Made by a program: the position numbers and the translations under genes
Notes under the pieces: model-generated
The model's input: only the letters and a program-made list of their open reading frames with translations
Told to the model about the DNA's origin: nothing
The model's database searches: none
Source: Candidatus Omnitrophota bacterium
Lineage (GTDB): Bacteria > Omnitrophota > Gorgyraeia > Aquiviventales > Aquiviventaceae
Direction of reading: 5' to 3'
DNA: 64,000 nucleotides
NCBI GenBank assembly: GCA_016180575.1
Contig: JACPAY010000001.1
Location: 64,857-128,856, forward strand
Shown here: positions 18,543 through 33,197 of the stretch, piece by piece
How the letters are laid out: each line of letters opens with the position of its first letter
How positions within the stretch are numbered: the first letter of the stretch is position 1

Positions 18543-20132
18543 ATGTTCAAGCGGTTGATTGTTTCGCACCGGATGCGCCGGCGCGTCAGCTGGCTCATCG
18601 CGGCCATCCTCATCCTGCCCTTCATCTTCTTCTTCCACGCCACCGGCCGAGCGCCGTCCCGCGGTCCGGGCGGGACGGCCGGGATCGTCTTCGGCAAGCC
18701 CATCGACTGGGACACGTTCCAGGACGAGCGGCGCTCGGTCCAGCGCCAGTTCGAAGAGCAGTTTGCCGCCCAGTTCGACGCGCTGGGCGAGCTGCTGCAG
18801 CCGATGATCACCGGGGCCGCCTGGGACCGCCTCATCGTGCTCGAAGAAGCCCGCCGGAGGCGGCTGCAGGTGGATGACGCGGAGGTGGCGGCATCCATCC
18901 GGCAGTTGCCCGAGCTCCAGGAGGAGGGCCGGTTCCATCCTGAGCGGTACCATCGGCTCCTGCAGCTTTCCGGGACCACCCCGCAGGCGTTCGAATCACG
19001 GATCCGCCGGGGCCTGCTCATCGAGAAGCTCGTCAGCTCCATCCGGAACGCGGTGACGGTCAGCGACGAGGAGGTGCGCGCCGCCTACCGCAAGGCGCGC
19101 GAGGCTCGCACCGCGTCGCTCGTCCTCTTCGATCCCGCCGCGGCCGCCGAGGAGGCCGCCGCAGCGCTCACCGAGGAGGAGCTGCGCGCCGCCTACGGCG
19201 CCCAGCTTGACACGCTGCGGGTCCCCGAGCAGCTGCGCCTCGAGTACGCCGGGCTCACGCGCGAGGAGATGAGCGCCTCGCTCCAGCTCACCGACGAGGA
19301 CATCCGCGGATTCTACGACACCCACCCGGACCAGTTTGCCCGGAGCGACGGGACGCTGAAGCCCTATGAGGAGGTCCGGGAGGAGGCCCGCCGGCAGCTC
19401 CTGGAGGAGCGGGCGCGCCAGCGGCTGGCCACGCTTGCCGTGGACCTGGAGGAGGACCTCAAGGTCCCGCTCCGGTTCGAAGAGATCATCGCGGCGCGAG
19501 GGCTCTCGCGGCACGCGGCCGGCCCGTTTCCCGCCGGGGCGTCCCACGCGGCCGGCGTGCCGGACCCGGCGATCCTCCAGGCAACCGAGGGGCTGGCCGA
19601 GGGCCGGGTGAGCGGCGTGATTGACACGGGCAGCGCCGTGTATCTTGCCCGGATCACGCAGCGCCTCCCGCCCCGCCTGCCGCCGTTCGAGGAGGCGCGC
19701 GGCGAGGTGCGCTCGACGCTGATCAGGGAGCGCGCGCGGGCCAAGGTCCGGGCGGATGCCGAGGCGTTCCGGAACCGAGTGGCGAATGAGCCGAGGCTCC
19801 GCTTTGAAGAAGCGGCCCTGGCGGCGGGCATCGCCCCCATGCCGGTGGAGGTGCGCCGGGGCCAGCCCTTCGACCCCATCGGCTACCAGGAAGCGCTCAA
19901 CGAGGCGGCCTTCGCGGTCCCGCTGGGCGGCCTCACCGAGGTGTTCGACACCCCGCGCGGGTTCGCCCTCCTCCGGCCGGAAACGCACCTGCCAGCGGAT
20001 GAGTCCCTGTTCGCCGAGGAGGCCCAGACCTTCCGGCCGCAGGTGGAAACCGAACGGCGCAACGCCCGCTTGGCGGAGTGGCTGGAGGAGGTCCGGGCCC
20101 GCGCGAAGCTGCGCAGCTTCGTGGAGGACTAG
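18543..20132 (+). CDS. PpiD/SurA-N-like periplasmic chaperone (peptidyl-prolyl isomerase-like)
   Basis: 529 aa. N-terminal membrane anchor (VSWLIAAILILPFIFFF), a SurA-N-like helical region and a parvulin-like region near the C-terminus. The assignment rests on general architecture only. Confidence 0.6.
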   Translation: MFKRLIVSHRMRRRVSWLIAAILILPFIFFFHATGRAPSRGPGGTAGIVFGKPIDWDTFQDERRSVQRQFEEQFAAQFDALGELLQPMITGAAWDRLIVLEEARRRRLQVDDAEVAASIRQLPELQEEGRFHPERYHRLLQLSGTTPQAFESRIRRGLLIEKLVSSIRNAVTVSDEEVRAAYRKAREARTASLVLFDPAAAAEEAAAALTEEELRAAYGAQLDTLRVPEQLRLEYAGLTREEMSASLQLTDEDIRGFYDTHPDQFARSDGTLKPYEEVREEARRQLLEERARQRLATLAVDLEEDLKVPLRFEEIIAARGLSRHAAGPFPAGASHAAGVPDPAILQATEGLAEGRVSGVIDTGSAVYLARITQRLPPRLPPFEEARGEVRSTLIRERARAKVRADAEAFRNRVANEPRLRFEEAALAAGIAPMPVEVRRGQPFDPIGYQEALNEAAFAVPLGGLTEVFDTPRGFALLRPETHLPADESLFAEEAQTFRPQVETERRNARLAEWLEEVRARAKLRSFVED

Positions 20133-20479
20133 AGCGCGGCCGACCAGGTGTGGTCGGAGAAGTCGAACGGCTTGGTGACGTAGCCGGCCGCCCCGAGGAA
20201 GTACGCCTCGCGGCGCAGCTCATCCCGGTCGAGGGCCGTCACCATGATGATCCGCGCCGTCGGGTGGAGCGCCCTGACGCGCTTGAGGAGCTCAAGCCCG
20301 GAGAGGCCGGGCAACAGGATGTCGAGCAGGATGACGTCCGGCGAGGTACCGGCTTGGAGCCGCTCCAGCGCCTCCTCCGCGCTGAAGGCCGACGCGACCG
20401 CGAAGCCCTTGGCGCTGAAGAACTGCTCGAGGCAGTCGCAGATATCGCGCTCGTCCTCCACGATGAGCATCTGCCGCAT
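20129..20479 (-). CDS. single-domain response regulator (CheY-like receiver)
   Basis: 116 aa: MLIVEDE..., LLDILLPGLSGLELL, IIMVTA and GYVTKPF. Confidence 0.85.
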   Translation of the reverse strand: MRQMLIVEDERDICDCLEQFFSAKGFAVASAFSAEEALERLQAGTSPDVILLDILLPGLSGLELLKRVRALHPTARIIMVTALDRDELRREAYFLGAAGYVTKPFDFSDHTWSAAL

Positions 20480-20531: not shown

Positions 20532-20695
20532 AAAATGGGCTGCTGAAGCCTTCGCTTCGGCAGCCCACCCTTCCGGTGCGACGCACCGGACGCGCGGCTT
20601 TGCGTCCCCCGCTCACGCGGGGTTTGCCTTTCTCGGCGTCCGCGTTGTCTGGTTATAGTCTGCCTGATGCCGGGCGGGATTGGCAAGGGGCGGGG

Positions 20696-24323: not shown

Positions 24324-24821
24324 TCAGCGCGGCAGCCGCCGGTCGGCCTTCCGGTTGCTCGCGGTCAGCTGGCGCTTGTGGGCCGCCAGCGCGCGCGCGA
24401 GGCGCGCGTCGCGGAGCGCCAGGCACTGGACCGCGAGGATGGCGGCGTTGGCGGCATTGTCGATTCCCACCGTCGCCACCGGGACGCCCTTGGGCATCTG
24501 GACCGTTGACAGGAGGCTGTCGAACCCCTTGAGGCTCTTGGTATTGATGGGCACGCCGATGACCGGCAGGGTCGTGTGGGCCGCCACGACGCCGGCCAGA
24601 TGGGCCGCCCCGCCCGCCCCCGCGATGACAATCTTCAGGCCCCGCGCCGCCGCGGCGCTGGCATAGCGGCGCACGAGCTCAGGGCTGCGGTGCGCCGACA
24701 AGACGCGCGCCTCGCACGGCACGCCGAAGCCCTGGAGCGTCTTCACCGCCTGCTCCATCACCGGCCAATCCGAATCGGACCCCATCAGGATGCCCACCAC
24801 CGGTCGCGGCGTCATCGGCAC
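24324..24821 (-). CDS. purE: N5-carboxyaminoimidazole ribonucleotide mutase
   Basis: 165 aa with [16 protein letters not shown] and [20 protein letters not shown]. Confidence 0.95.
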
Positions 24822-24825
24822 CTCG

Positions 24826-26112
24826 TCAATGGCTCGAGACGGGTTTCTTCAGGGCGCGGAACCCGATGTCCTTCCGGTACGCCATCCCCTCGAAACGGAT
24901 CGCCCCGATCGCGTCGTAGGCGCGCCTCAGCGCCCTCTCCAGGTCCGGACCCGTGGCGACGACGTTCAGCACGCGCCCGCCCCAGCTGAGGAACCGCTCC
25001 TTGTCTTTCTTCGTCCCGGCGTGGAACACGAGCAGGCCGGGAGGCTGCTTGTCCTGGCCCAACCCCTGGATCTCCTTGCCGATCGGGAAGTCGCCTGGGT
25101 AGCCGCCCGACGCCAGCACCACGCACGCGCAGCTGCCCGGCGCCCAGCGGCACTGCGCCGTCGAGAGCCTGCCCTCGACCGCGTCGTCGAGGATGGGCAC
25201 GAGGTCGCTCGACAGGAGGGGCAGGATCGCCTGGAGCTCCGGATCGCCGAAGCGGACGTTGTACTCCAGGACCTTCGGGCCGTCGCCCGTCAGCATCAGC
25301 CCCGCGAAGAGGACGCCCTTGAAGGTGAGCCCCTCGGCCGCCATCGCCCGCAGCGTCGGCGTGATGATCTGGTCCATGACCTGCGCGGCCAGCGCCGCAT
25401 CGACGACGGGCGCCGGCGCGTAGGCGCCCATCCCGCCGGTGTTCGGCCCCTTGTCGCCGTCGAGGAGCCGCTTGTGGTCCTGCGCCGGCAGGAGCGGCAG
25501 CGCCGTGACGCCGTCGGTCACGACGATGATCGAGGCCTCCTCGCCGACGAGCCGCTCCTCCACCACGATGCGCTCCCCCGCCTGCTTGAAGATGCGGTCC
25601 TCCATGAGGAGGTCGACCGCGCCGAGCGCCTCGCTGAGCGTGCTGGCGACGATGGTGCCCTTCCCGCCGCAGAGGCCGTCCGCCTTCACCACGATCGGCG
25701 CGCCGAGCTGCCGGACGTAGGCGCGCGCCGCCTGGGGATCGTCGAAGACGGCGAACTGCCCGGTCGGGATGTGGTACTTCTTCATGAGGTTCTTGGCGAA
25801 CGCCTTGCTGGACTCCAGGCGCGCCGCCGCCTTCGTCGGGCCGAAGATCCGCAAGCCCCGCTTCTCGAAGAGGTCCACGATGCCCTTCGCCAGCGTCATC
25901 TCGGGCCCGACCACCGTGAGGTCGATGTCCTTGTTCTCGGCGAACTCCGCCAGCCCCTCGATGTCCTCCGCCCCCAGGTCGACGAGCTCGGCGAGCTCGC
26001 CGATGCCCCCGTTGCCCGGGGCGCAGAAGAGCTTGGTCACCTCGGGCGATTGAGCCAGCTTCCAGATCAGCGCGTGTTCCCGTCCACCAGACCCCACAAC
26101 TAATACTCGCAT
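24826..26112 (-). CDS. purD: phosphoribosylamine--glycine ligase
   Basis: 428 aa from ATG 26112: [21 protein letters not shown]-grasp fold. Confidence 0.95.
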
Positions 26113-26113
26113 C

Positions 26114-26686
26114 TCACTTCTCCCCCTGAACAGTCGATGTCGGCGGCGTAAAATAAAACGCAACTCCAATCAGCACAAGAAACACCACGAGTGAGGGCAA
26201 TTCAGATGCCGTGCCACCGCGAAGATGTTGTAACATCGCCATGGCATCCTGAATGGCGGTGGGATATCCTCGCACAATTCCAACCACCACCGCGCCGAAC
26301 GCCCAGCCAGCAGCACGTATGAACAAGGGCCATGAAATGAGTGATGAGGTCGTCATGCTCCACCAATATTGGCCGCCGCCCAGTGGCAACAGTTTGATCG
26401 CAAGAAGCGATGACGCCAACGTGAGATACCCACCAACAAGCCAGCAGGCCACTCGTCCAAATGCCCTTCTTTGCATCTGGAGTCTTGAGATGAGCCAGGC
26501 CGGCACGAGGGCCAACAATGCGCTACAAATAGACGCCAACGCAAAAATGGGTGCAAGGTCAGATGCGGCCAGACCTTCAAGGAATCCGAGCCCTGGGCGC
26601 CTCCACACATAAGTGACCCAGTATCCCAAGGCAGGAGCCGGAGAAACTACGAACCAAACCACGACCCATCTCCATCGTCCCCGCAT
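26114..26686 (-). CDS. hypothetical polytopic membrane protein (about 5 TM), low-G+C orphan inside the pur operon
   Basis: 190-aa ORF filling the purM-purD gap exactly. Five hydrophobic segments and no motif I recognise. Hand-counted G+C is 52-57% in four 60-nt lines, against 67% in flanking lines. Confidence 0.5.
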   Translation of the reverse strand: MRGRWRWVVVWFVVSPAPALGYWVTYVWRRPGLGFLEGLAASDLAPIFALASICSALLALVPAWLISRLQMQRRAFGRVACWLVGGYLTLASSLLAIKLLPLGGGQYWWSMTTSSLISWPLFIRAAGWAFGAVVVGIVRGYPTAIQDAMAMLQHLRGGTASELPSLVVFLVLIGVAFYFTPPTSTVQGEK

Positions 26687-26701
26687 CTCGTTAAATCTGC
26701 C

Positions 26702-27691
26702 TCAAATTCGGGATGCCTGTCGTTCAATCGTTCCTATGATCCAGGCGGGCACGCCTGCCCGCTGCAAGAGGCGGATGAGCCGCGCCGCCTGAGGGGCGCG
26801 GCAGACCAGCGCCATCCCGATGCCCATGTTGAAGGTGCGCTCCATCTCCTCGTCGCTGATGCGGCCGGCGCGCTGGATCGTCCGGAAGATCTCCGGCACC
26901 GGCCAGCTGCCCGGTGTGACGCGCACCTGCAGCCCCGGACGCTGCGCCACCAGGCTCGGCAGCCGGCGCGCGAGCCCGCCGCCGGTCACGTGCGCGAGCG
27001 CAAGGAGCCGCACCGACCGCAGCGCCCCCAGCACGGGCCGGACGTAGATGCGCGTCGGCACAAGCAGCCGGCGCGCGAGCCGCCGCAGCTGGGCCGCCGT
27101 GAAGGCGCGGCGCACCAGCGAGAAGCCGTTCGCGTGCACCCCGGCGGAGGCCAGGCCCACCACCGAATCTCCGGCGCGGACGCTGCGTCCGTCGATGAGC
27201 CGCGCGCGCTCCACCACCCCGACGCAGAACCCGGCGACGTCGTAGTCGCCGCGGCGGTAGGCGCCGGGCATCTCGGCGGTCTCCCCGCCCAGCAGCGTGC
27301 AGCCGCTCTCGCGGCAGCCGCGCGCGATCCCGCGCAGCAGCTCGCTCATCAGCCGCGCCTGGAGCCGGCCCACCGCGAGGTAGTCGAGGAAGAAGAGGGG
27401 CTCCGCCCCGTAGACGAGGACGTCGTTCACGTTCATCGCCACGAGGTCCACCCCGATGCCCTCGTGGCGCCCGGCGAGCTGGGCGACCTTCAGCTTCGTG
27501 CCGACCCCGTCGGCCGAGGCCACGAGCACCGGATCGCGCAGCCCGCCCGGCAGCCGCATGAGGCCGGCGAACTGCCCGCGGTCCGCCAGCACCTCCGGGC
27601 GGCGCGTCGTCCGGATGAGCGGGCGCATGCGCGAGAGCCAGGCGTCCGCCCCCTCGACATCGACCCCGGATGCACGATAGGTGGTCGCCAC
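26702..27691 (-). CDS. purM: phosphoribosylformylglycinamidine cyclo-ligase
   Basis: Starts at GTG 27691, 1 nt after the purF stop: (M)ATTYRASGVDVEG... Also DGVGTKLK and GGETAEMPG. The track ORF is over-extended. Confidence 0.93.
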   Translation of the reverse strand: MATTYRASGVDVEGADAWLSRMRPLIRTTRRPEVLADRGQFAGLMRLPGGLRDPVLVASADGVGTKLKVAQLAGRHEGIGVDLVAMNVNDVLVYGAEPLFFLDYLAVGRLQARLMSELLRGIARGCRESGCTLLGGETAEMPGAYRRGDYDVAGFCVGVVERARLIDGRSVRAGDSVVGLASAGVHANGFSLVRRAFTAAQLRRLARRLLVPTRIYVRPVLGALRSVRLLALAHVTGGGLARRLPSLVAQRPGLQVRVTPGSWPVPEIFRTIQRAGRISDEEMERTFNMGIGMALVCRAPQAARLIRLLQRAGVPAWIIGTIERQASRI

Positions 27692-27692
27692 G

Positions 27693-29108
27693 TCAGCAGC
27701 GGCCCTGGCCCGCGTGCTTCTCCAGCGCGAACTTGTCGCCCTCCCCGCCGAAGGGGATCGGGTAGGTGCCGCTCCAGCAGGCGGTGCAGTAGTCGGCGGG
27801 CCGCCCGACCGCCTTGAGCATCCCGTCCAGCGAGAGGTAGCCGAGGCTCTCCACACCGATGAAGGTGCGGATCTCATCGAGCGAGAGCCGGTTGGCGATC
27901 AGCTCCCGCTTGCTCGGGAAGTCGATGCCATAGAAGCAGGCGTGCTTCGTCGGCGGACAGCTCACCCGCATGTGGATCGCCTTCGCGCCGGCCTCGCGCA
28001 GGCTCTTCACGCGGGCGCGGGTCGTGTTCCCGCGCACGATGGAGTCATCGACGATGACGAGCCGCTTGCCCTTGATGATCTCCCTGATCGGGTTGAACTT
28101 GACGCGGATCTTCAGGTCGCGGATCTCCTGCGCCGGCTGGATGAACGTCCGTCCGACGTAGTGGTTGCGGATCATCCCGAGCGCGAAGGGGATCTTCGAT
28201 TCCAGGCTGTAGCCGAGCGCCGCGAAGTTGCCCGAGTCCGGGATGGGCATGACGAGGTCCGCCTCCACCGGGTGCTCGCGGGCGAGCTGACGGCCCAGCT
28301 TGACCCGCACCGCCTGGACGCTCTCGCCGAAAATGTGCGAATCGGGCCGGGCGAAGTAGACGTGCTCGAAGAGGCAGTGGGAGCGGCCCGTCGGCTGGTC
28401 CTTGAAGGGGCGCAGCGAGCGCAGGCCCCCGGCGCCGATGCACACGGCCTCGCCGGGCTCCACCTCCCGCACGAACTTCGCGCCGATGATGTCGAGCGCG
28501 CACGTCTCCGAGGCCAGCACGTGCGTCTTGTTGAGCCGGCCGAGCACGAGCGGCCGAAACCCGTTCGGGTCCCGGACGCCGACGAGCTCGCGCTCCGTCA
28601 GGAAGAGGAGCGTGAAGGCCCCCTTCAGCAGCCGGAGGCACTCCACCAGGTCGTCCTGGAACTCCTTGTTCGTCGCGCGCGCCAGCAGGTGCAGGATGAT
28701 CTCGCTGTCCACCGTCGTCTGGAAGATGGAGCCGTTGGCCTCCAGCTGCTGCCGCAGCTCGTAGGCGTTGACGAGGTTGCCGTTGTGCGCCACGGCGATC
28801 GAGCCCTTCGCGTAGGTGACGACGAGCGGCTGCGAGTTCTTCAGGGTGCTGGAGCCGGTCGTGGAGTAGCGGGTATGCCCGATGGCCGTCCGGCCCGGGA
28901 GCCCGTGCAGCGTCTGCTCATGGAACACCTCGGAGACGAGGCCCATGCCCTTGTGGGTGTGCATCGCCTTCCCGTCATAGGTGACGATGCCGGCGGCCTC
29001 TTCGCCCCGGTGCTGGAGCGAGTAGAGCCCAAGGTACGTCAGGCGCGCCGCGTCCCGGTGGCCGTAGATCCCGAAGAGCCCGCAGGAGTGCTTGACCGCT
29101 TCGTCCAT
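27693..29108 (-). CDS. purF: amidophosphoribosyltransferase
   Basis: 471 aa from ATG 29108, with an ATGA overlap on the purL stop. Propeptide then CGLFGIYG, plus the PRTase loop VIVDDSIVRGNT. Confidence 0.95.
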   Translation of the reverse strand: MDEAVKHSCGLFGIYGHRDAARLTYLGLYSLQHRGEEAAGIVTYDGKAMHTHKGMGLVSEVFHEQTLHGLPGRTAIGHTRYSTTGSSTLKNSQPLVVTYAKGSIAVAHNGNLVNAYELRQQLEANGSIFQTTVDSEIILHLLARATNKEFQDDLVECLRLLKGAFTLLFLTERELVGVRDPNGFRPLVLGRLNKTHVLASETCALDIIGAKFVREVEPGEAVCIGAGGLRSLRPFKDQPTGRSHCLFEHVYFARPDSHIFGESVQAVRVKLGRQLAREHPVEADLVMPIPDSGNFAALGYSLESKIPFALGMIRNHYVGRTFIQPAQEIRDLKIRVKFNPIREIIKGKRLVIVDDSIVRGNTTRARVKSLREAGAKAIHMRVSCPPTKHACFYGIDFPSKRELIANRLSLDEIRTFIGVESLGYLSLDGMLKAVGRPADYCTACWSGTYPIPFGGEGDKFALEKHAGQGRC

Positions 29109-31429
29109 CAGCGCCGCAGCCCCCACGCGCGCGGAAGCCCGGTCCGCCAGGCCTCGCTCAGCTCGTCGACCGGCACATCGATCCATGAGTCGAGGCGCAG
29201 ATGCGCGCCGCCCACCCGGCCCAGGACCGCCATCGGCACGTTGTGGCGCGCGGCCAGGTGCTCGACCCGCTCCACGTGGTACCGCGCGCAGCTGGCGACG
29301 ATGCGGCCCGCCGACTCGCCGAAGAGCAGCGCATCGGTCCGTATTCGCTGACGGCTGCCCGCCCCGGCCCTCGTGATGGGCGGGCCGGGGAAGGCTGACG
29401 GCTGAAGGCTGACCACGGCGCCGAGGAGCCGCGCGGGCTCCATGATGCAGCATTCGGCCAGCGCGACCGCCAGCCCCCCTTCGGAGCAGTCGTGCGCCGA
29501 CTTAAGCCACCCCTGGGAGGCCAGCGCCAGCATCAGCTGCTGCAGCGCCGACTCGCCCGCCAGGTCAACCCGCGGGGGTTTGCCCGCCTTGCGCTTGTGG
29601 ATCATGGCCAGGTACTCGCTGCCGCCCAACTCCTCCCGCGTCTCGCCGAGGAGGATGACGGCGTCGCCCTCATCCTTAAAGTTCGCCGTAATCGGTCCTG
29701 GGACAGGAGACGGGGGACGTGAGACATGTCTCCTGTCTCTTGTCTCCTGTCTCGGTTCAATCAGGCCGATCATGCCGATCACCGGCGTCGGATCGATCGC
29801 GCCCCGCGGCCCCTCGTTGTAGAAACTCACGTTGCCGCCGGTCACGGGCGTCTTGAACGCCCGGCAGGCGTCACTGATCCCGCGGACGCACGCCTTGAAC
29901 TGCCACATGACCGCCGGGTCCTGCGGGCTGCCGAAGTTGAGGCAGTCGGTGACGGCGAGCGGCCGCGCCCCGACGCAGACCAGGTTGCGCGCCGCCTCGG
30001 CCACCGCCGCCTTGCCGCCCTCGTAGGGGTCGAGGAAACAGAAGCGGCCGTTGCCGTCGGTGGTCGCCGCCAGCCACGTGCCGAGCGCCCTGAGCCGCAG
30101 GACGGCGGCATCCGCCCGTCCGGGGAGGACCGCGGTGTTCGTCTGGACCATGTGGTCGTACTGCTCGAAGACGGCGGATTTATCCGCGATCGTCGGCGAA
30201 CCCAGCAGCGTCAGGAGCACGGCGCCGTAATCCTTCGGCAGCGGCAGCCGAGCCAGCAGCAGCCGCTGCGCCCGGGCGAGCCCCGCCGGGCGCCGGACCG
30301 GCCGGCGGTACACCGGCGCCTCGTCGGTGAGCGCCGAGGCCGGGATCTCCGCCGCGACGGCAGAGCCGTCCCGCACCCGCATCAGGCCGTCGCGCGTCAC
30401 CCGCCCGATCTCCACCGCGTTGAGCCCCCATTTGGCGAAGAGCCGCTTGACCCGCTCCTCGCGGCCGCGCTTCGCGATGAGCAGCATGCGCTCCTGCGAC
30501 TCGGAGAGCATCACCTCATACGGGGTCATCCCCTCCGCGCGGCGCGGCACGCGCGCGACATCGATCTCGATCCCCACGCCCCCGCGCGCGGCGGTCTCTG
30601 AGGTCGAGCAGGTCAGGCCGGCCGCGCCCATGTCCTGGATGCCGACGACGTCGCCGGTCGCCAGCGCCTCGAGCGTCGCCTCGATCAGACATTTCTCGGT
30701 GAACGGGTCGCCGATCTGGACCGCCGGCCGGTCCGCATCGCCGTCGGCCAGCTCGCGCGAGGCGAACGAGGCGCCGCCCAGGCCGTCGCGGCCCGTCGAG
30801 GAGCCGACGTACAGGACCGGGTTGCCGACCCCGCCGGCCGCCGCGCGCGCGATCCGCCGCGCCGGCACCAGGCCGATGCACATCACGTTGACGAGCGGGT
30901 TGTCCCGGTAGGCCGGGTCGAAGGCGATCTCGCCGCCCACCGTCGGGACGCCAACCGCGTTCCCGTAGTCGCTGATCCCTTTCACCACGCCCTCCAGGAG
31001 AAACCGGCTGCGGGGCTCCTCCAGCGGACCGAAGCGCAGAGAGTCCAAGAGCGCGATGGGCCTGGCCCCCATGGTGAAGATGTCGCGGATGATGCCGCCC
31101 ACCCCGGTCGCGGCCCCCTGCACCGGCTCCACCGCGGAGGGGTGGTTGTGGCTCTCGCATTTGAACACGACCGCCCAGCCCCCGCCGATGTCCACCACGC
31201 CGGCGTTCTCCTTCCCGGCCGGCACGAGGATGCGCGGGCCCTTCGTCGGGAACGTCTTGAGGTACGGCCGGGAGCTGCCGTAGCTGCAATGCTCCGAATA
31301 CATGACGCCGAAGATCCCGACCTCCGTCAGCGTCGGCTGGCGGCCCAGCGTCTTGACGATGTGCCGGTACGTCTCGTCCGTGAGGTTGTGCGACTTCGCG
31401 ACCCGCTTCAGCAGCTGCGCGTCAGGCAT
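29108..31429 (-). CDS. purL: phosphoribosylformylglycinamidine synthase subunit PurL (FGAM synthase II)
   Basis: 773 aa with SEHCSY, GGIIRDI and the duplicated PurM-like domains. It contains an in-frame insertion encoded by repeat C3. Confidence 0.95.
29700..29755. repeat. Family C heptamer palindrome inserted in frame in purL
   Basis: GGGACAG GAGACGG GGGACGT GAGACAT | GTCTCCT GTCTCTT GTCTCCT GTCTCGG. It is translated as ..[20 protein letters not shown].. Confidence 0.9.
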
Positions 31430-32111
31430 GGGCGTAGGCCTCGAGCATCGACTCGAAGATGAGCCGCCCGTCGGAGGAGCCCAGGGCCGCCTCGGCGGCC
31501 CGCTCCGGGTGCGGCATCATCCCGAGCACGTTGCCCCGCTCGTTGGCGAGGCCCGCGATGGCGTCGACCGACCCGTTCGGGTTGGCCGCGTCGGCGACGC
31601 GGCCGTCCTCCTTGCAATAGCGGAAGACGACCTGGCCCTGGACCGCCTTGAGCGTCTTCGTGTCGGCCGCATAGCGGCCCTCGTTGTGGGCGATGGGCAG
31701 GCGGATGGTCTGGCCGGCCTCAAACCGGTTCGTGAACGGGGTGTCGGTCCGCTCCACCCGCAGCGTCACGAACCGGCAGATGAACCGCAGGCCCGTGTTG
31801 CGCAGCATCGCGCCCGGGAGCAGGCCCGCCTCGAGCAGGATCTGAAAGCCGTTGCAGATGCCGAGGACGAGGCCGCCCTCCCTCGCGAAGCGGGCCACCG
31901 ACCGCATGATGGGCGAGAAGCGGGCGATCGCCCCGGTCCGGAGGTAGTCGCCGTAGCTGAACCCGCCGGGCAGGACGACCGCGTCGGCGCCCTTCAGCGA
32001 CGTCTCCTGGTGCCAAAGCGGCACCGCGCGCTGCCCGATGACATCGTTGAGGACGTCGAGGCAGTCCTGGTCGCAGTTGGACCCCGGGAAGACGACCACG
32101 CCGAACTTCAT
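31422..32111 (-). CDS. purQ: phosphoribosylformylglycinamidine synthase, glutaminase subunit PurQ
   Basis: 229 aa from ATG 32111: [21 protein letters not shown] and HPER. Confidence 0.93.
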
Positions 32112-32350
32112 GAGCCGAGCTCGATGCGGTAGGTCTCGACGACCGGATTGGCGAGCAGTGTCTTGCACATCCGCTCCACATCCTTCCGGGTCGCGCCGGC
32201 GGAGCCGTGGTTGAGCTCAAGCTCCAGGTACTTGCCGACGCGCACGTCGTGGACTCCCTTGAATCCCAGCGACTCCAGCGCCTGCTTGATCGTCTTCCCC
32301 TGGGCGTCGAGCAGGCCCGGTTTGAGCGTAATCGTCACACGAACTTTCAT
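32108..32350 (-). CDS. purS: phosphoribosylformylglycinamidine synthase subunit PurS
   Basis: 80 aa from ATG 32350: [26 protein letters not shown]. Confidence 0.9.
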
Positions 32351-32465: not shown

Positions 32466-33197
32466 TCATGTGTTACCCAGCACGCGGCGCAGCACTTCTT
32501 GATAGGCCTCCTCGACGCTGCCCAGGTCCCGGCGGAAGCGGTCCTTGTCCAGCTTCCGGCGGGTGCCCTGCTCCCACAGCCGCATCGTGTCCGGCGAGAT
32601 CTCATCGCCGAGCACGAGGTGCGTCGTCGGCTTCCCGTCCGGACCGATGACGCGCCCGAACTCCAGCTTGAAGTCCACCAGGTCGATCTGCCGCTCCCGG
32701 AAAAATGCTTTGAGCGCGTCGTTGATCTTGAACGACTCCGCGCGGATGTGCGCGAGCTCCTCCGCCGTCGCCCAGCCCATCGCCAGGATGTGGTCGTCGT
32801 TGATGAGCGGATCGCCCAGCGCGTCGCTCTTGTAGTGCCACTCGAACACCGGGCTCTTGAGCGCGACCCCCTCCTCGATGCCGAGGAGCTTGGCCATGCC
32901 GCCGGCGGTGATGTTGCGGATCGTCACCTCAAGCGGAACGATCTCGAGCCGCTTGACGAGCATCGAGCGCTCGTCGAGCTGCTTGACGAAATGGGTCGGC
33001 ACGCCCTGGCGCTCGAGGTACGCGAAGAGGGCGCTGGAGACGCGGTTGTTCACGATCCCCTTGTCGACGATGGTGCCGCGCTTCTGGGCGTTGAACGCGG
33101 TCGCGTCGTCCTTGAAGTACTGGGTCACGAGCGCCGGGTCGTCCGTCGCGTAGAGGATCTTGGCCTTCCCCTCATAGAGCTTGTCACCGCGGCTCAT
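32466..33197 (-). CDS. purC: phosphoribosylaminoimidazole-succinocarboxamide synthase
   Basis: 243 aa with LYEGKAK.LY and ...DKDRFRRDLG. Confidence 0.95.
   Translation of the reverse strand: MSRGDKLYEGKAKILYATDDPALVTQYFKDDATAFNAQKRGTIVDKGIVNNRVSSALFAYLERQGVPTHFVKQLDERSMLVKRLEIVPLEVTIRNITAGGMAKLLGIEEGVALKSPVFEWHYKSDALGDPLINDDHILAMGWATAEELAHIRAESFKINDALKAFFRERQIDLVDFKLEFGRVIGPDGKPTTHLVLGDEISPDTMRLWEQGTRRKLDKDRFRRDLGSVEEAYQEVLRRVLGNT

Follow-up and report, generated by a model that had tools for sequence, protein, structure and literature searches.

Gene order at the locus

The window analysed here is a stretch of 64 kb from a Candidatus Omnitrophota genome, and within its purine biosynthesis (pur) operon a segment of 607 nt (26114-26720) separates purM from purD. 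On alignment with related loci, this segment is a derived insertion, specific to one groundwater Omnitrophota lineage. It contains an open reading frame (ORF), here called orfX (26114-26686 in the ORF listing), with an ATG start, a TGA stop and a predicted product of 190 amino acids, and this is probably the gene of a small, orphan, polytopic membrane protein. Every feature of the locus lies on the minus strand.

Directly upstream of orfX is purM (26702-27691), encoding aminoimidazole ribonucleotide (AIR) synthase (TIGR00878, E 7e-112), and directly downstream is purD (24826-26112), encoding phosphoribosylamine-glycine ligase (TIGR00877, E 6e-163). The other genes of the operon were assigned with NCBIfam equivalog models. 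They are purC (32466-33197), purQ (31422-32168), purL (29108-31429) and purF (27693 to about 29105) on the purM side, and purE (24324-24821) on the purD side. Beyond purE come a TsaC/Sua5-type gene and then a gene for a low-molecular-weight phosphatase. Elsewhere in the window, a c-di-GMP-I riboswitch (20556-20638, minus strand; Rfam RF01051, 58 bits against a gathering score of 35) is found just upstream of an ORF of 116 amino acids (20129-20479, minus strand).

The junctions on both sides of orfX are tight. The stop codon of purM (26704-26702) is followed by a spacer of 15 nt, GGCAGATTTAACGAG (26687-26701), and then by the ATG of orfX; the spacer together with the purM stop codon gives a GAGG motif at -17 to -14 of this ATG. 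At the other end, a single base (26113) lies between the orfX stop and the purD ATG (26112-26110), in the arrangement TGAgATG. The Shine-Dalgarno-like sequence for purD, GGGGGAG (26120-26126), falls within the last codons of orfX (Q G E K and the stop), and the Shine-Dalgarno survey places its GGAG at -11 of the purD start. With TGAgATG, the 3' end of the insert reproduces the native operon style of stops and starts that overlap or lie 1 nt apart. purM itself likely begins with a GTG located 1 nt past the purF stop (TGAcGTG, 27689-27695), and the 1-nt spacing common to purF-purM and orfX-purD would indicate translational coupling throughout the operon. An earlier note on this DNA had described a 190-codon ORF filling the gap between purM and purD with its stop 1 nt from the purD ATG, and the coordinates agree with this description; the codons that it quoted for the start of purD (ATG CGA GTA TTA GTT) and for the end of purM (ATT GAA CGA CAG GCA TCC CGA ATT TGA) were also read correctly.

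It may be added that orfX is in the reading frame of purM. Between the two genes (QASRI, stop, GRFNE, MRGRW; 26684-26719) there are only the TGA and five sense codons, so that a single read-through or mutation of this TGA would give a fusion of PurM to a membrane anchor. A shared frame has a one-in-three chance of arising by coincidence.

A lineage-specific insertion

The window was compared by blastn with related Omnitrophota loci, among them L002 and L082, and the purM-purD junction could be read in 66 relatives. The closest purD, with 92% protein identity, is that of L002, a Candidatus Omnitrophota metagenome-assembled genome (MAG) from New Zealand groundwater, and some 70 further Omnitrophota genome or metagenome loci have a purD that is 75-89% identical. 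Between 18.7 and 32.8 kb the window is collinear with L002 over about 14 kb at 84-92% DNA identity (about 87%). The sole break in this alignment is the inserted segment, where 607 nt in the window stand against 11 nt in L002. Its borders are exact, between 26113 and 26114 and between 26720 and 26721, in the alignments with L002 and L082. The two closest relatives have no gap at all, their purM stop and purD start sharing bases in TGATG. The gap between the two genes ranges from -4 to 160 nt among the 66 relatives, with one further value of 444 nt, and is typically at most 32 nt in the clade; no gene was found at any of the 66 junctions. The comparison with the pur operons of relatives, which had been proposed in the earlier note, therefore upholds the view of the segment as an insertion specific to this lineage.

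The insertion also altered the end of purM. The conserved core of this gene stops at IGTIER in alignments of the purM tail with those of relatives, and the insert supplies what comes afterwards, namely the last five codons (QASRI) and the stop (26702-26719). A Logan contig from a separate assembly (SRR12113384, listed in 2 samples, 1402 bp) matches the window base for base over the aligned part, its positions 40-840; it has the same gene order purM-orfX-purD and encodes the exact orfX protein. The sequence of the insert is thus not an assembly quirk of one contig.

The same junction is variable in other members of the phylum. In many related Omnitrophota, the purM-purD spacers (66-160 nt) consist of long hairpins of tandem heptamers and their complement, such as (GGATTTT)n...(AAAATCC)n, (GCGGATT)n...(AATCCGA)n and (GACGATT)n...(AATCGTC)n, while others are different near-perfect palindromes. 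Palindromic spacers occur in L020 (about 2189-2317) and at the purM-purD junctions of L091, L090, L086, L009, L116, L115, L102, L016 and L088. Judging from these sequences, palindromic intergenic elements seem to have landed at this junction repeatedly. The 444-nt spacer (L014, 3029-3472) belongs to another Omnitrophota MAG; it has 48% G+C, no ORF of more than 64 amino acids, and carries repeated TGTCATG/CATGACA and TTTTGCAAAA motifs. No similarity was detected between the insert and the purM-purD spacers of relatives, the 444-nt spacer included. Two relatives show changes inside purD: in L017 (about 944-2263) there is an in-frame tandem duplication in which VDIGAEDVEALAEF occurs twice, and in L003 (6001-7311) an insertion of about 11 amino acids near the C-terminal domain.

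A mobile element was considered as the source of the segment. An insertion sequence (IS) or a miniature inverted-repeat transposable element (MITE) was rejected, as no inverted or direct repeat pairs the borders 26114 and 26720, and neither the window nor 1.4 Mb of related loci has a second copy of the insert.

Base composition

The G+C content of orfX is 55.7%, against a mean of 69.3% for the window (standard deviation 2.9% in windows of 573 nt), which places it about 4.7 standard deviations below the mean. Nowhere else in the 64 kb is G+C so low, and no other stretch falls under 60% at this scale. The insert as a whole has about 56% G+C, and the coding strand of orfX is rich in T (T 28.5%, A 16%). 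The contrast is most pronounced at the third codon position. G+C at the three codon positions of orfX (GC1, GC2 and GC3) is flat, at 57, 53 and 57%, while GC3 amounts to 92-95% in purD, purM and purL and to 81-99% in all other confident genes of the window. The low G+C relative to flanking purD and purM, which the earlier note had counted by hand, is therefore real.

That note had furthermore proposed that the A+T-rich codon usage bleeds into the neighbouring genes. This holds for the end of purM, the last five codons and stop of which are within the insert, and mostly fails for the start of purD, where low GC3 is a property of the whole clade and is seen without any insert. In 70 relatives that do not have the insert, mean GC3 of purD codons 2-13 is 0.63-0.65, against 0.86-0.95 in the rest of the gene. 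For the first 12 codons it is 0.42 and 0.50 in the two closest relatives and 0.33 in the window, the purD start of which differs from that of L002 by three synonymous changes (codons 2-13).

The predicted product of orfX

The sense frame of orfX has no internal stop across the 589-nt gap between purM and purD, with an open run of 195 codons. The insert is poor in A on the sense strand and therefore intrinsically poor in stops: in shuffles that preserve dinucleotides the longest open run has a mean of 122 codons, and runs of at least 190 codons are reached in 1.3% of shuffles on the same strand (p about 0.013) and in 2.4% on either strand. The use of nucleotides is uneven over the codon positions (chi-square p=0.007), with 36% T and 10% A at the second position. 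The 444-nt spacer of L014, which has no such ORF, also reaches p=0.035 for 3-periodicity, so this test is a weak one. A comparison of the amino-acid composition with random expectation does not discriminate, as native genes correlate similarly.

Hydrophobicity is the more telling signal. The grand average of hydropathicity (GRAVY) of the product is 0.74, a value reached by 0 of 3000 mononucleotide shuffles and by 2 of 3000 dinucleotide shuffles, each scored as the best of three frames. Both halves of orfX are significant on their own (p=0.03 for codons 1-89 and p=0.008 for the remainder). On the Kyte-Doolittle scale (threshold of at least 1.6) there are four clear transmembrane (TM) segments, at residues 47-65, 79-97, 120-138 and 163-181, as well as a weaker, Trp-rich hydrophobic stretch near the N-terminus (residues 5-28), so that a former estimate of about five TM segments was a fair one. 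When the residues of the product are shuffled, only 3.3% of the shuffles yield at least four segments of TM length. The other five frames of the insert have 3-9 stops, no TM-like segment and GRAVY values from -1.56 to 0.05. A gene on the opposite strand or in another frame was rejected on account of these stops and hydrophilic frames and of the null Pfam result for the four other ORFs.

The charged residues are located between the TM segments, with Arg clusters at 2-6, 68-78 and 139-156 and an uncharged loop at 102-114. This pattern fits the positive-inside rule and would be compatible with an N-in topology in which the Arg-rich loops are cytoplasmic. The N-terminus is basic and then hydrophobic, and could possibly be a signal peptide with an AxA site, cleaved between MRGRWRWVVVWFVVSPAPA and the following L, or else an anchor. 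The predicted product further includes the peptides GYPTAIQDAMAMLQHLR and VACWLVGGYLTLASSLLAIK.

In the public annotation of the 140-kb contig there is a "hypothetical protein" at this position, MBI2104046.1 (HYT90_00495), that corresponds to the C-terminal 101 amino acids of orfX (26114-26419). It begins at a TTG, codon 90 of orfX, and leaves about 270 nt unannotated. The hydrophobicity of codons 1-89 suggests that the model of 190 amino acids is better than this shorter call. Taken together, the open, hydrophobic and periodic signals, all specific to the same frame, make it likely that orfX codes for protein, and we hold this with good though not full confidence; they also favour the longer model.

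Homology and fold searches

The searches for homologues and for similar folds that the earlier note had called for were carried out, and its author's failure to recognise a family is matched by their outcome. With Pfam and NCBIfam, at E values up to 10, orfX gave nothing beyond a chance match of 6 bits. The best match in PHROGs was a tape measure protein at E=0.27, again by chance, and PADLOC gave no match. A phmmer search of 1.84 billion cluster representatives, standing for about 15 billion predicted proteins, recovered only the truncated copy of orfX itself, and a word-indexed search of 5.8 billion clusters gave no match. Scans of JGI metagenomes and IMG/VR, plasmid searches by blastn and phage searches by tblastn were likewise negative. 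The cluster of proteins at 90% identity to which orfX belongs has just two members, the protein at full length and a shortened version of it. With no homologue outside its lineage in these databases, orfX would count as an ORFan, or taxonomically restricted gene.

Several specific identities were tried and rejected. A purine or nucleobase permease (NCS2, NCS1, AzgA or MFS PbuE) has no profile match, and a protein of 190 amino acids with 4-5 hydrophobic segments does not resemble one: known purine permeases have about 430-460 amino acids (about 400 or more) and 12-14 TM segments. For the S component of an energy-coupling factor (ECF) transporter, there was no match to the Pfam S-component models, and the structure model of orfX is too poor for a comparison of folds. 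A type I toxin, a holin or another phage membrane protein is matched by neither PHROGs, PADLOC nor phage sequences, and the neighbours of orfX are purM and purD; type I toxins have fewer than 60 amino acids and one TM segment. The two functional guesses of the earlier note, a purine or precursor transporter and a toxin-like small membrane protein, thus find no corresponding model and disagree with the size and the number of TM segments of orfX.

Probable expression within the pur operon

The insert was found to contain neither a terminator-like site nor a promoter-like site on the sense strand, and the simplest inference is therefore that orfX is co-transcribed with the pur genes, as had been supposed before. 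The folding energy of the RNA is in line with this (z-score -0.09). A structured RNA or riboswitch in the insert was rejected from the same minimum free energy z-score and from the Rfam search, which gave no match at threshold (best E=0.32). Two genes of the de novo purine pathway, purD and purE, lie downstream, and the insert would therefore have to be transcribed within the pur mRNA. This mRNA probably has the composition purC-(purS)-purQ-purL-purF-purM-X-purD-purE.

A course of events may be proposed as follows. About 600 nt from an unsampled source, most likely imported, would have replaced the overlapping purM stop and purD start (TGATG). Ribosomes that end purM would re-initiate at the in-frame ATG 15 nt downstream and make a product of 190 amino acids that begins with basic residues, continues with a stretch resembling a signal anchor and contains four TM helices, presumably inserted into the membrane. 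Termination 1 nt before the purD ATG, with the Shine-Dalgarno sequence of purD inside the end of orfX, would then pass the ribosomes on to purD, so that coupling is retained. An open, translated frame would also spare the operon a long untranslated stretch, and this may be reason enough for selection to preserve it, irrespective of the function of the protein. orfX would in this case be a hitch-hiking accessory membrane protein and not a component of the purine pathway.

Origin of orfX

Any explanation of this locus has to deal with an insertion that has exact borders, is unique to one lineage, stands out in composition, carries an open and hydrophobic frame of its own and has no homologue. 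On balance, we lean towards the reading that orfX is a young, lineage-specific ORFan membrane protein, recently imported, and co-transcribed and translationally coupled in the pur operon. Import is favoured because the frame carries an order at the level of the protein that composition does not explain, as judged by the hydrophobicity of the shuffles, and because DNA from which it could have arisen is missing at this site in the sister lineages. It is also favoured by the best-studied case, E. coli, whose ORFans proved for the most part to be imports and not inventions (PMC13012023). The absence of the segment from the orthologous site in relatives, together with its atypical composition, is what would be expected of horizontally acquired DNA.

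A number of observations weigh against this reading. The true intergenic spacers of the same genome have 44-58% G+C, a range that includes the value of orfX, so composition alone cannot tell import from local origin; of the earlier proposal of horizontal acquisition, the insertion and the atypical composition stand, and import itself is not settled. A GC3 of 57% with flat GC1, GC2 and GC3 is atypical for any established gene and shows no amelioration towards the host. The annotation pipeline (PGAP) calls just the last 101 codons, and orfX has a weak Shine-Dalgarno sequence that lies far from its start (GAGG at -17), with a survey that is not decisive. The single-sequence AlphaFold2 model is poor (pLDDT 50), and a Foldseek search with it against PDB and BFVD gave nothing below E=3.6. 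No homologue turned up by which selection on orfX could be gauged from conservation or dN/dS. Purely non-coding inserts are tolerated at the same junction in relatives. Finally, protein and DNA searches, including those for terminal inverted repeats and target-site duplications, found no donor, no homologue elsewhere and no mobile-element vehicle for the insert.

Some of these observations would also fit a different account, in which orfX arose in place as a proto-gene: a spacer expanded, a frame rich in T opened, and the frame was kept for carrying translation across from purM to purD, its membrane-like product being a by-product or newly adaptive. The insert has the G+C of native spacers and a GC3 that is not raised, relatives hold non-coding inserts of 66-444 nt at the very same junction, its sequence is by nature poor in stops, and no homologue of orfX was found anywhere searched. 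T-rich non-genic sequence is known in yeast to yield TM-like peptides (PMC7005711), and those ORFans of E. coli that are of resident origin are often membrane-associated (PMC13012023). Such an origin nonetheless appears unlikely, as composition does not reproduce the hydrophobic, segmented frame, and no precursor is visible, the sister junctions being of 11 nt or overlapping. The insert also shares nothing with the spacers of relatives or with the rest of the window, and does not have the palindromic-repeat architecture of those spacers. In its boldest form, that orfX is a bacterial gene at or just after birth, held open to carry ribosomes from purM to purD and already giving a membrane-inserted protein, this account is to be regarded as decidedly unlikely; in a less novel variant of it, the protein may have gained a membrane role related to purines. 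The segment could also be plain filler, either non-coding from the start or left over from an imported gene in decay, from which no stable or useful protein is made and in which read-through alone matters. Here the lack of conservation evidence, the short PGAP call and the poor structure model can be cited, as well as the chance occurrence of stop-free frames in 1.3-2.4% of shuffles and the periodicity of the non-coding L014 spacer. Against this, orfX is on the strand of the operon and fills the insert end to end, from an ATG 15 nt past purM to a stop that abuts purD, several partly independent signals coincide in its frame, and 589 nt of untranslated sequence would be unusual in a tightly coupled operon of a clade with such short gaps. 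Filler appears unlikely, although it deserves to be kept in mind.

Functional explanations that would tie orfX to its neighbours or to a mobile source fare less well than import of an ORFan. A membrane function linked to purines, that of a novel small component for binding or transporting a substrate (an S-component-like protein or salvage permease, for example) which the pur operon took up and which is regulated along with de novo synthesis, could be suspected from the position of orfX inside this operon, and its 190 amino acids and five hydrophobic segments may be said to resemble ECF S components. These are small and diverse in sequence, and are often encoded in operons of the matching pathway. 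It is very unlikely that orfX has such a function: none of the Pfam or NCBIfam transporter or S-component models matched, 66 of 66 relatives run the same operon without orfX, and its composition is foreign. Genes for uptake and for de novo synthesis are, moreover, normally regulated in opposite directions and not co-transcribed, which counts against a co-transcribed transporter. The idea of a toxin-, holin- or immunity-like membrane protein of a mobile element or phage, stranded in the operon, draws on the small size, hydrophobicity, foreign composition and ORFan status of orfX and on the fact that phages are a frequent source of ORFans (PMC13012023). It is most improbable, considering that no match was obtained in PHROGs, PADLOC, phage genomes, viral contigs or plasmids, that no antitoxin, endolysin or bacteriocin gene accompanies it as a partner, and that no integrase, att site or terminal inverted repeats were seen. 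A protein of 190 amino acids with 4-5 TM segments is also far from the type I toxins, and a toxin expressed constitutively along with housekeeping genes would burden the cell.

Significance

Whether bacterial ORFans are imported or invented is still debated (PMC13012023), and the purM-purD locus provides an unusually clean case, with borders exact to the base, empty sister sites, a single gene with neither island nor phage, and an extreme contrast in composition. The position of orfX would force its transcription and probably its translation. The locus can therefore be used for asking whether operon context and translational coupling hold a new frame open. Should orfX prove to have been born in place, it would be a natural and datable example of the birth of a gene embedded in an operon, since the sisters keep the empty TGATG junction. 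On a more practical level, the public annotation is corrected from 101 to a probable 190 amino acids. No new insight into purine metabolism itself comes from orfX, and as long as neither its expression nor its function is shown, the general interest of such a singleton hypothetical protein in a MAG is limited.

Comparison with known systems

Among the systems with which orfX can be compared, the ECF S components (5-6 TM segments) share with it the size, the number of hydrophobic segments and the location in a pathway operon. They differ in that there is no similarity of sequence or profile, that orfX is absent from all relatives, and that its structure model is too poor to compare. The palindromic elements at the purM-purD junction of relatives have in common with the insert the landing site, a G+C content lower than that of the flanks and a presence that is specific to lineages. 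However, these elements are heptamer hairpins of 66-160 nt without an ORF, whereas the insert has 607 nt and one full-length ORF, with no inverted arms and no excess fold energy.

The TM proto-genes of yeast (PMC7005711) are similar to orfX in their T-rich strand, TM-rich product, lack of ancestry and composition like that of non-coding DNA. Unlike these, orfX has no non-coding precursor at the orthologous site of sister lineages, is hydrophobic beyond what composition gives, and is found in a bacterial host and in the context of an operon.

A likeness to the imported ORFans of the E. coli type (PMC13012023) can also be seen. As in these, orfX has no homologue outside its lineage, is short, is richer in A+T than the genome of its host, and is either present or absent when close relatives are compared. 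In contrast to them, it is not part of an island, a prophage or a hotspot adjacent to a tRNA gene; it is a single gene in an overlapping stop/start junction of a core operon, where coupling appears to be kept on both sides, and its contrast in GC3 is extreme (57% against 92-95%). As a lineage-specific ORFan annotated as a hypothetical protein, orfX is of an ordinary kind, and what is unusual is its placement in a coupled core-operon junction and the contrast of its composition.

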